DNA of 64,000 nucleotides from NCBI RefSeq assembly GCF_003334405.1, contig NZ_QOWM01000016.1, one strand, 5' to 3'. The notes below the pieces were generated by a model. The model saw only the letters and a list, made by a program, of their open reading frames with translations, was not told the origin of the DNA and did not search any database. Below, piece after piece: positions 55,872-57,032 of the stretch; position 1 is the first letter of the stretch; the number at the start of each line of letters is the position of its first letter. The position numbers were made by a program, and so were the translations under genes. Origin of the DNA: Escherichia coli (GTDB lineage: Bacteria; Pseudomonadota; Gammaproteobacteria; Enterobacterales; Enterobacteriaceae).

Positions 55872-55897
55872 AGCCTGGCTTATCGCCGGGCTTTTTT
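55872..55897 (+). terminator. intrinsic terminator of argCBH
   Basis: agcctggc-ttatc-gccgggct hairpin followed by T6. Confidence 0.85.
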
Positions 55898-55902
55898 ATG
55901 GC

Positions 55903-56019
55903 AAAAAAAAGCGGATCCTGGAGATCCGCAAAAGTTCACGTTGGCTTTAGTTATTCGAGTTGAGAAACTCTCGAAACGGGCAGTGACTTCAAGGGTTAAA
56001 AGAGGTGCCGCTCCGTTTC
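55903..56019 (-). ncRNA. oxyS: OxyS small regulatory RNA
   Basis: Minus strand reads GAAACGGAGCGGCACCUCUUUUAACCCUUGAAGUCACUGCCCGUUUCGAGAGUUUCUCAACUCGAAUAACUAAAGCCAACGUGAACUUUUGCGGAUCUCCAGGAUCCGCUUUUUUUU, the OxyS sequence as I recall it, ending in a hairpin plus U8 terminator; divergent from oxyR. Exact ends +/- a few nt. Confidence 0.9.
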
Positions 56020-56114
56020 TGTGAGCAATTATCAGTCAGAATGCTTGATAGGGATAATCGTTCATTGCTATTCTACCTATCGCCATGAACTATCGTGGCG
56101 ATGGAGGATGGATA

Positions 56115-57032
56115 ATGAATATTCGTGATCTTGAGTACCTGGTGGCATTGGCTGAACACCGCCATTTTCGGCGTGCGGCAGATTCCTGCCACGTTAGCCA
56201 GCCGACGCTTAGCGGGCAAATTCGTAAGCTGGAAGATGAGCTGGGCGTGATGTTGCTGGAGCGGACCAGCCGTAAAGTGTTGTTCACCCAGGCGGGAATG
56301 CTGCTGGTGGATCAGGCGCGTACCGTGCTGCGTGAGGTGAAAGTCCTTAAAGAGATGGCAAGCCAGCAGGGCGAGACGATGTCCGGACCGCTGCACATTG
56401 GTTTGATTCCCACAGTTGGACCGTACCTGCTACCGCATATTATCCCTATGCTGCACCAGACCTTTCCAAAGCTGGAAATGTATCTGCATGAAGCACAGAC
56501 CCACCAGTTACTGGCGCAACTGGACAGCGGCAAACTCGATTGCGTGATCCTCGCGCTGGTGAAAGAGAGCGAAGCATTCATTGAAGTGCCGTTGTTTGAT
56601 GAGCCAATGTTGCTGGCTATCTATGAAGATCACCCGTGGGCGAACCGCGAATGCGTACCGATGGCCGATCTGGCAGGGGAAAAACTGCTGATGCTGGAAG
56701 ATGGTCACTGTTTGCGCGATCAGGCAATGGGTTTCTGTTTTGAAGCCGGGGCGGATGAAGATACACACTTCCGCGCGACCAGCCTGGAAACTCTGCGCAA
56801 CATGGTGGCGGCAGGTAGCGGGATCACTTTACTGCCAGCGCTGGCTGTGCCGCCGGAGCGCAAACGCGATGGGGTTGTTTATCTGCCGTGCATTAAGCCG
56901 GAACCACGCCGCACTATTGGCCTGGTTTATCGTCCTGGCTCACCGCTGCGCAGCCGCTATGAGCAGCTGGCAGAGGCCATCCGCGCAAGAATGGATGGCC
57001 ATTTCGATAAAGTTTTAAAACAGGCGGTTTAA
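56115..57032 (+). CDS. oxyR: LysR-family oxidative-stress regulator OxyR
   Basis: ORF 56085..57032; ATG at 56115 after GGAGGATGG gives the 305-aa [44 protein letters not shown]... protein. Confidence 0.97.

Follow-up and report, generated by a model that had tools for sequence, protein, structure and literature searches.

The convergent genes oxyR and sthA of Escherichia coli, whose coding sequences run into each other on opposite strands, raise the question of where their two transcripts end, and whether the antisense pairing of these transcripts has any bearing on the levels of the peroxide regulator OxyR and the transhydrogenase SthA. The window, i.e. the whole stretch of 64,000 nucleotides that was analysed, is K-12-like and contains the argB-argH-oxyS-oxyR-sthA-fabR neighbourhood; the 1.6 kb around the oxyR/sthA overlap are 100% identical to K-12-type strains, and a genome comparison found the argH-oxyS-oxyR-sthA locus in all 5426 of 5426 complete E. 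coli genomes. RefSeq annotates argH, oxyR, sthA and fabR exactly at the positions of the open reading frames, in identical sequence, and also carries the identical 18-nt overlap. A longer oxyR reading frame in the list of open reading frames, starting at the ATG at 56085, differs from the annotated start and was set aside. Published positions were transferred by subtracting 4,102,375 from the MG1655 coordinate (U00096.3), a conversion verified by exact match of published 61-nt sequences, and the U00096.2 coordinates of Huang 2020 were converted with the oxyR start 4156513 equal to window position 56115. The genes and terminators concerned are the following:

54475-55848, plus strand: argH coding sequence (argininosuccinate lyase), with a TAA stop at 55846-55848 (list of open reading frames, RefSeq).
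55871-55897, plus strand: argH intrinsic terminator (terminator scan, fold of -16 kcal/mol).
55903-56019, minus strand: oxyS sRNA gene including its terminator hairpin and U8 tail (Rfam, terminator scan, published 3' ends).
56115-57032, plus strand: oxyR coding sequence, 305 aa (list of open reading frames, RefSeq).
57015-58415, minus strand: sthA coding sequence (soluble pyridine nucleotide transhydrogenase), 466 aa (list of open reading frames, RefSeq).
57015-57032, both strands: convergent coding overlap of oxyR and sthA, 18 nt, TTAAAACAGGCGGTTTAA (open reading frames, RefSeq, folding/sequence check).

The argH terminator, the oxyS terminator hairpin and the 18-nt overlap had all been claimed in a first-pass annotation of this DNA, and all three are present. 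The argH terminator consists of a 9-bp stem (55871-55893; six GC pairs and one G-U pair) with a 5-nt loop and a tract of six T residues (55892-55897), so that a GC-rich stem-loop leads directly into a U-rich tract; the 3' end of argH is absent from both published 3'-end tables (Term-seq, Adams et al., 2021; TRS, 2023). OxyS matches the Rfam family RF00035 over its full length (1-110) at 55910-56019 on the minus strand, scoring 139.5 bits where the gathering threshold of the family is 75 (E = 3.9e-30). Its terminator hairpin (55929-55911, minus strand) has eight pairs, five of them GC, and is followed by U8, which appears as the A-run 55903-55910 on the plus strand. The published oxyS 3' ends lie in or at the end of this U8 tract, at 55904/55905 by Term-seq (PMC7815308) and at 55901 by TRS (PMC10687069). 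Both hairpins thus correspond to canonical intrinsic terminators in having a GC-rich hairpin followed by a U tract. The tail-to-tail placement within about 15 bp that the first-pass annotation described is real, with 17 nt between the two hairpins and 5 nt (ATGGC) between the T-run and the A-run. Each was also considered as a bidirectional terminator and rejected, the argH hairpin for a C-A mismatch that its stem gains on the opposite strand, and the oxyS hairpin for its opposite strand continuing with AAAAGUU. What lies here is an ordinary pair of unidirectional terminators, and since argH and oxyS have separate intrinsic terminators, with the oxyS RNA ending at 55901-55905, their RNAs should not overlap. 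On its other side oxyS is divergent from oxyR: 95 nt separate its 5' end at 56019 from the start codon of oxyR (56115), which lies on the other strand.

The description of oxyS and oxyR as boxed in by these terminators is correct for the present sequence and fails as a general statement. The motif ...GCCGGGCTTTTTT-ATGC-AAAAAAAAGCGGAC... is common to most of the Enterobacteriaceae loci compared, argH being separated from its terminator by variable repeats, and the argH hairpin is wholly missing in a few genera. Within E. coli, 1872 of the 5426 genomes (35%) lack the 54 nt from 55849 to 55902, and with them the K-12 argH terminator; about 3.1 kb with manD and a gene for an MFS transporter stand in their place, and homology restarts exactly at the A-run of oxyS. 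The back-to-back arrangement is therefore strain-specific.

At the other end of oxyR, a consensus terminator scan of both strands found no hairpin followed by a T-run at or next to 57015-57032. The earlier statement that there is no terminator between oxyR and sthA is accurate in this respect and trivial in another, as overlapping coding sequences leave no "between"; each gene has its 3'-end-forming hairpin further on, within the coding sequence of its partner. A 12-nt palindrome centred on the oxyR stop (CGGTTTAAACCG, 57025-57036), considered as a miniature bidirectional terminator, offers a stem of only 4 bp and is not conserved, being imperfect in most species (consensus ...TTTAAGCCG). The overlap itself is codon-aligned: where one gene has its TAA stop, the partner reads the opposite strand as a TTA leucine codon. 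For comparison, a scan for OxyR in one genome per species (at least 90% identity) gave 80 loci from Enterobacteriaceae and Pantoea. The coding sequences overlap convergently in 79 of the 79 loci that have both genes (Enterobacteriaceae/Erwiniaceae), by 18 nt in 72 species and in the E. coli loci, by 27 nt in six and by 9 nt in one. The 27-nt overlaps, in which the oxyR stop is read through, arise because the opposing leucine codon of sthA is CTG or TTG and not TTA, and the overlap as such is probably conserved because the C-terminus of SthA is under coding constraint. Its presence in 79 of 79 enterobacterial species, with the locus in all complete E. coli genomes, goes beyond chance, and this conservation is an addition of the present analysis.

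The transcripts overlap by far more than the coding sequences do, as follows from published 3' ends and dsRNA data:

56970-57129, both strands: complementarity of the mature oxyR and sthA mRNAs, 160 nt (derived from measured 3' ends).
56736-57080, both strands: p19-captured RNase III dsRNA cluster listed as "oxyR sthA, 3', Convergent" (U00096.2 4157134-4157478; Huang 2020, PMC7373196).
56653-56770, minus strand: part of the sthA readthrough RNA that is rich in C and poor in G, a candidate Rho loading region (composition, C/G up to 2.15).

By Term-seq, sthA has a strong 3' end, classified as primary and antisense to oxyR, at 4159345, which is window position 56970; it was seen in two of three growth conditions, with counts similar to those of the oxyS end (Adams et al., 2021, PMC7815308). 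TRS places the sthA end at the same nucleotide, 56970, and the primary oxyR end at 4159504 (range 4159500-4159506), corresponding to 57129 (57125-57131) and a 3' UTR of 100 nt (PMC10687069). The sthA mRNA accordingly extends 45 nt beyond its stop codon into oxyR, and the ends of both mRNAs pass beyond the overlap at 57015-57032. Bicyclomycin-sensitive, i.e. Rho-dependent, regions were reported on the plus strand with a peak at 57134 (score 5.1) and on the minus strand at 4159015, window position 56640 (score 5.8, p = 6e-31; Adams et al., 2021, PMC7815308), the latter just downstream of the C-rich stretch 56770-56653. Since such regions occur on both strands, some transcription continues deeper into the partner gene until Rho acts. 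The operon ends mapped with RNA-seq by Conway et al. (2014), as quoted in Huang 2020, give an overlap of 379 nt (4157161-4157540; window 56763-57142). The first-pass annotation had deduced from the 18-nt coding overlap that the transcripts must be antisense to each other at their 3' ends; this is correct, with about 160 nt for the mature RNAs and up to about 380 nt with readthrough in place of 18. RNase III processing of the overlap, which it had proposed as a check, has in effect been surveyed genome-wide, with 21-22-bp duplexes captured in vivo: the cluster appears in Table S1 as E-268 and S-345 (exponential and stationary phase), with 21/22-bp duplexes in Table S3 (Huang 2020, PMC7373196). 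The fields for the dsRNA-IP of Lybecker 2014 ("MS-") are blank for this cluster in the Huang table, so that it was apparently not detected there. Table 1 of ExcludonFinder (NAR 2025, PMC12288877), with 165 convergent excludons that occur in at least half of 58 MG1655 transcriptomes, includes oxyR-sthA. The antisense overlap of the oxyR and sthA 3' ends is therefore already known from published genome-wide datasets, and the pair is a convergent excludon in the sense that transcripts of opposite-strand neighbours overlap.

These data are, with high probability, best explained by an ordinary, evolutionarily fixed convergent pair in which each 3'-end signal lies inside the coding sequence of the partner and which mostly tolerates the antisense pairing as a by-product. 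The first-pass annotation had considered a more consequential role, namely that the peroxide regulator and the transhydrogenase might interfere with each other. In its full form this would be a functional convergent excludon, in which the transcription or the RNA of one gene lowers the other through collision of RNA polymerases and/or cleavage of the duplex by RNase III, and which would couple the level of OxyR to the NADPH-consuming transhydrogenase. Such a role would fit the complementarity of 160-380 nt, the recovery of RNase III-cut duplexes in both growth phases, the entry in the ExcludonFinder list and the convergent arrangement in 79 of 79 species. By contrast, quantitative proteomics of rnc mutants, an indirect measure, gave changes of 1.37-fold and 1.17-fold for SthA and of 1.26-fold and 0.67-fold for OxyR, i.e. 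shifts of at most 1.5-fold and inconsistent in direction for OxyR (Huang 2020, PMC7373196), so that mutual interference has found no support so far; these measurements cover two growth phases in rich medium, and an effect of the overlap under specific conditions is possible. The mean yield of p19-captured dsRNA is moreover 37.9-fold lower for convergent 3' overlaps than for divergent 5' ones (Huang 2020, PMC7373196), and the conservation of the coding overlap is explained by the constraint on the C-terminus of SthA. According to Conway et al. (2014, mBio, PMC4161252), 276 of 370 convergent operon pairs (about 75%) overlap, by 286 nt on average; with three quarters of such pairs overlapping, the overlap alone is no predictor of regulation. 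A search of full texts for oxyR and sthA together with antisense or convergent transcription returned the ExcludonFinder catalogue (PMC12288877) only and yielded no promoter-deletion data. Transcription of oxyR is autoregulated and is not known to be induced by peroxide or stress; oxyR would therefore be a poor regulatory input, and the physiological logic is weak. Taken together, these observations suggest that the effect of the overlap on OxyR and SthA levels is small at most, and we regard a functional excludon as unlikely.

If the pairing is largely tolerated, the 3' ends themselves must be accounted for. Three hairpins were considered:

57081-57125, plus strand: hairpin H2, a 15-pair stem-loop in the oxyR 3' UTR (fold, RNAalifold, conservation).
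57045-57080, plus strand: hairpin H1 (fold of -21 kcal/mol in E. coli).
56975-57000, minus strand: hairpin S, an 8-bp stem GGCCAUCC/GGAUGGCC with a 10-nt loop (fold of -15 kcal/mol).

An Rfam search of 54000-59500 (E <= 1) returned OxyS only, with no described family over H2 or S. H2 lies inside the sthA codons for V-N-T-T-F and K-G-G-G-N and is followed by the tail UUUCUGUU. Its lower stem, AAAGGUGGUG/GCCGCCACCUUU, leads into CUGUU, and the oxyR 3' end at about 57129 falls 4 nt past the full 15-pair hairpin. Without the basal A-U pairs, H2 is a GC-rich stem followed by UUUCUGUU and resembles a terminator. It shares with canonical intrinsic terminators the GC-rich lower stem, an upstream AAA, the tail and a 3' end 4 nt after the hairpin, but differs from them in its 13-nt loop, an internal mismatch, its position within a coding sequence and its coincidence with a bicyclomycin-sensitive site, the Rho peak at 57134 being 5 nt from the oxyR 3' end; the consensus terminator scan did not call it. 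In view of the long loop and the coincidence with the Rho peak, H2 may be a weak or Rho-assisted terminator, or may only protect the oxyR 3' end.

In an alignment of 56940-57150 from 79 species, 98.9% of the base-pair cells of H2 are paired on the plus strand versus 85.3% on the minus strand, and the full set of 15 pairs is preserved in 71 of 79 species on the plus strand but in only three of 79 on the minus strand; as the aligned species are related, such counts of sequences and cells overstate the number of independent events. As an empirical null, all hairpins of 8 bp or more predicted on either strand of oxyR and sthA (n = 230) were scored in the same way. H2 ranks first of the 230, both for the fraction of variant cells that stay paired (0.948, with 0.83 for the next best and typical values of 0.2-0.6) and for the fraction of species that keep every pair (0.896). 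RNAalifold, which is independent of the E. coli fold, recovers the core of H2. Furthermore, across the 466 sthA codons no 8-codon windows vary less at the third position than the two that coincide with the arms of H2 (entropy 0.37 and 0.59, against a mean of 1.04 for the gene), and two Thr codons are ACC in all species without exception. The changes that do occur are one-sided and wobble-compatible only, with no double-sided compensatory change, and codon preference (ACC for Thr, GGC/GGT for Gly) may contribute to the pattern. On comparative grounds, H2 thus appears to be a strand-specifically conserved RNA element that constrains codon choice in sthA, which is the sole other addition of this analysis. 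H1 did not qualify as a conserved element in any of these comparisons: all of its pairs are intact in 10 of the 79 aligned species, in the null set 32% of its variant cells are paired and 12% of species are fully paired, and RNAalifold likewise does not recover it. H1 is probably incidental.

Hairpin S lies in the sthA 3' UTR, inside the oxyR codons for A-I-R...M-D-G, and its stem is followed in the sthA RNA by UCUGC and then by the 3' end at 56970, which both datasets place 5 nt downstream of the stem. The tail after S, UCUGCCAG, has two U residues in eight and is no U-rich tract; S is therefore not an intrinsic terminator. The stem is intact in 67 of 79 species and ranks second for intactness (0.84) in the comparison with the control hairpins, and its third codon positions have low entropy, while the codons of its loop vary freely. 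Double-sided changes occur, AU to GC in five sequences and CG to UA in two, such that an amino-acid change encoded by one arm is matched on the other; the replacements I to V and D to N are both accompanied by a change in the paired base. Variant cells are few in the comparison with the 230 hairpins, with only 31% of them staying paired, and wobble asymmetry reveals no strand preference for S (94.3% versus 93.7% of cells paired). Judged by these alignments, the conservation signal of S is weaker than that of H2. What S does have is a stable stem-loop without a U tract and a precise steady-state 3' end immediately downstream. Such a configuration is known. According to Dar & Sorek (2018, PMC6061677), Rho-dependent transcripts end just past stable stem-loops that lack a U tail, including stem-loops within downstream coding sequences, and such ends arise after trimming by PNPase and RNase II. 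S resembles these protective stem-loops in the absence of a U tract, in the precise 3' end a few nucleotides downstream, in its location inside the coding sequence of the downstream gene, and in the Rho-dependent drop with a C-rich stretch further on, the Rho region at 56640 lying 330 nt downstream of the sthA 3' end and being preceded by the C-rich tract; exonucleolytic trimming at sthA is putative.

A more far-reaching reading takes H2 as a selected RNA element in the sthA frame, with codon choice bound by the terminator of the neighbour, which together with S would set a conserved length of antisense overlap that tunes OxyR and SthA under some condition, e.g. oxidative or NADPH stress; we consider this composite claim unlikely. 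Least probable of all is that H2 and S are no RNA elements, the pattern being due to protein and codon-usage constraint on SthA (KGGGN/VNTTF) and OxyR (AIR..MDG) and the mapped ends being incidental stops of degradation: both hairpins do lie within coding sequence, H2 lacks double-sided changes, ACC and GGC/GGT are at once the preferred codons and those that pair, and S has few variant cells, but H2 comes first among 230 hairpins of these two genes, which share one codon bias, its arms are the least variable third-position windows of sthA, it is intact in 71 versus 3 of 79 species on the two strands, two independent methods place the oxyR end 0-6 nt past H2 and the sthA end 5 nt past S, and the I to V and D to N replacements in S are matched in the paired base.

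The ordinary convergent pair thus remains the preferred explanation. Beyond its stop codon the oxyR mRNA continues for about 100 nt into sthA and ends just after H2 and UUUCUGUU, where H2 could act as a weak intrinsic terminator and/or as an exonuclease block, with Rho as back-up. The sthA mRNA enters oxyR for 45 nt beyond its own stop and ends 5 nt downstream of S, which has no U tract; S would protect this end, Rho-terminated sthA transcripts being trimmed back as far as its stem-loop. Some polymerases read on, on both strands, until the Rho-dependent drops at about 57134 (plus strand) and about 56640 (minus strand), and the complementary tails pair in vivo and are cut by RNase III. The 18-nt coding overlap would persist through encoding the constrained C-terminus of SthA, and the antisense pairing would mostly be a tolerated by-product with a small effect at most on OxyR and SthA. 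On the far side, argH and oxyS use their own intrinsic terminators tail to tail, with RNAs that should not overlap.

As a discovery the overlap carries little weight: every annotation has the gene overlap, published genome-wide data already contain the overlapping transcripts, their 3' ends, the Rho-dependent readthrough and the duplexes cut by RNase III, and most convergent operon pairs of E. coli behave likewise. Its value is that of a clean, documented case, in which there is no spacer and each 3'-end signal is placed in the coding sequence of the neighbour. The strand-specific conservation of H2 indicates that a 3'-end signal can constrain the synonymous codon choice of a neighbouring gene throughout a bacterial family. 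Reciprocal control of oxyR and sthA, if true, would tie redox regulation to the NADPH/NADH balance, but on the available evidence any such effect is small at best.

Work with SEnd-seq, from Ju and co-workers in 2019, reportedly described overlapping bidirectional terminators between convergent genes. The oxyR/sthA pair shares with such terminators (Wang et al., 2022, preprint) the convergent genes, the termination linked to stem-loops and possibly the head-on encounters of polymerases. In a bidirectional terminator, however, one shared hairpin lies between A and U tracts, whereas oxyR and sthA use separate hairpins about 80-150 nt apart, H2 (57081-57125) for oxyR and S (56975-57000) for sthA, and no single shared hairpin was found for the two genes; argH and oxyS differ likewise in having two hairpins. 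Also related are the overlapping convergent operons of Conway et al. (2014, PMC4161252) and the excludons of PMC12288877, which are likewise opposite-strand neighbours with complementary 3' ends, and oxyR-sthA is an entry in both. It differs from these catalogued pairs in that the coding sequences overlap as well, by 18 nt, and leave no intergenic space, and from the excludon concept in that the mutually exclusive expression on which the concept is centred is putative for oxyR-sthA. The fre-fadA cluster of convergent dsRNA is, like oxyR-sthA, a pair with overlapping 3' ends that yields p19-captured RNase III duplexes (Huang 2020, PMC7373196).

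Of 5426 complete E. coli genomes, 1872 differ from K-12 at the junction between argH and oxyS, where approximately 3.1 kb take the place of 54 nt that include the K-12 argH terminator. The stretch concerned is:

Window 55849..55902: where the argH terminator meets that of oxyS; entered for loci L002, L003 and L084 of the OxyR scan (one genome per species)

The insert comprises an AT-rich, REP-containing leader, followed by manD (D-mannonate dehydratase) and an MFS transporter, both in the orientation of argH. At its right edge, homology picks up precisely at the oxyS terminator's A8 run. 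The stop codon of the MFS transporter lies only 38 nt from this run, and the transporter gene lacks a T-tailed hairpin. The K-12 form of the junction is also present in other genera and looks to be the ancestral state. In five loci, namely L024 (Yokenella), L044 (Trabulsiella), L073, L056 (Cedecea) and L052, the argH stop codon is only 3-36 nt from the 3' end of oxyS and a separate argH terminator hairpin is absent. Transcription of argH in these genera would need to stop at, or enter, the oxyS terminator, or run into oxyS itself. By blastn upstream of oxyR, no oxyS was detected in L041, L048, L049, L051, L069-L075 and L077-L083, which include Buttiauxella, Pantoea, Mangrovibacter, Shimwellia, Pseudescherichia and others; these genera may carry a divergent oxyS rather than lack the gene. 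The annotation of a single strain, E. coli E423 (NZ_CM173464.1), places an ISApl1 (IS30-like) transposase in the 1.6 kb that match window 55700-57300.

At the convergent oxyR/sthA end, a synonymous change of a sthA leucine codon, from TTA to CTG or TTG, abolishes the oxyR TAA stop on the opposite strand in Buttiauxella, Enterobacter soli and Pluralibacter:

Alignment A1 (window 56940-57150), columns 90-105: lost oxyR TAA stop; loci L030, L031, L075, L077, L078 and L080

Where this stop is lost, OxyR gains three residues and the two CDSs overlap by 27 nt, providing a concrete example of a synonymous change in one gene altering the protein of its neighbour. Immediately 3' of the sthA RNA end, RNAalifold predicts a small stem on the minus strand (56951..56969, CAGC.GCU/AGC.GCUG), which is part of a larger minus-strand hairpin (56979..56935, -24.6 kcal/mol). 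Two pairs of the small stem show CG to UA double changes, in 10 and 14 sequences, and since these belong for the most part to the Citrobacter clade, they probably reflect few independent events.

A second p19/RNase III dsRNA cluster has been reported at the 5' end of sthA, on the side facing fabR (U00096.2 4158623-4158826, window 58225..58428), together with an antisense plus-strand TSS at 4158793 (window 58395) (Huang et al., 2020, PMC7373196). This TSS falls within sthA codons, with the fabR start 351 nt downstream of it, suggesting that a long fabR leader or an antisense RNA overlaps the start of sthA. By read count, the sthA 5' cluster exceeds the oxyR/sthA 3' cluster (Huang et al., 2020, PMC7373196).
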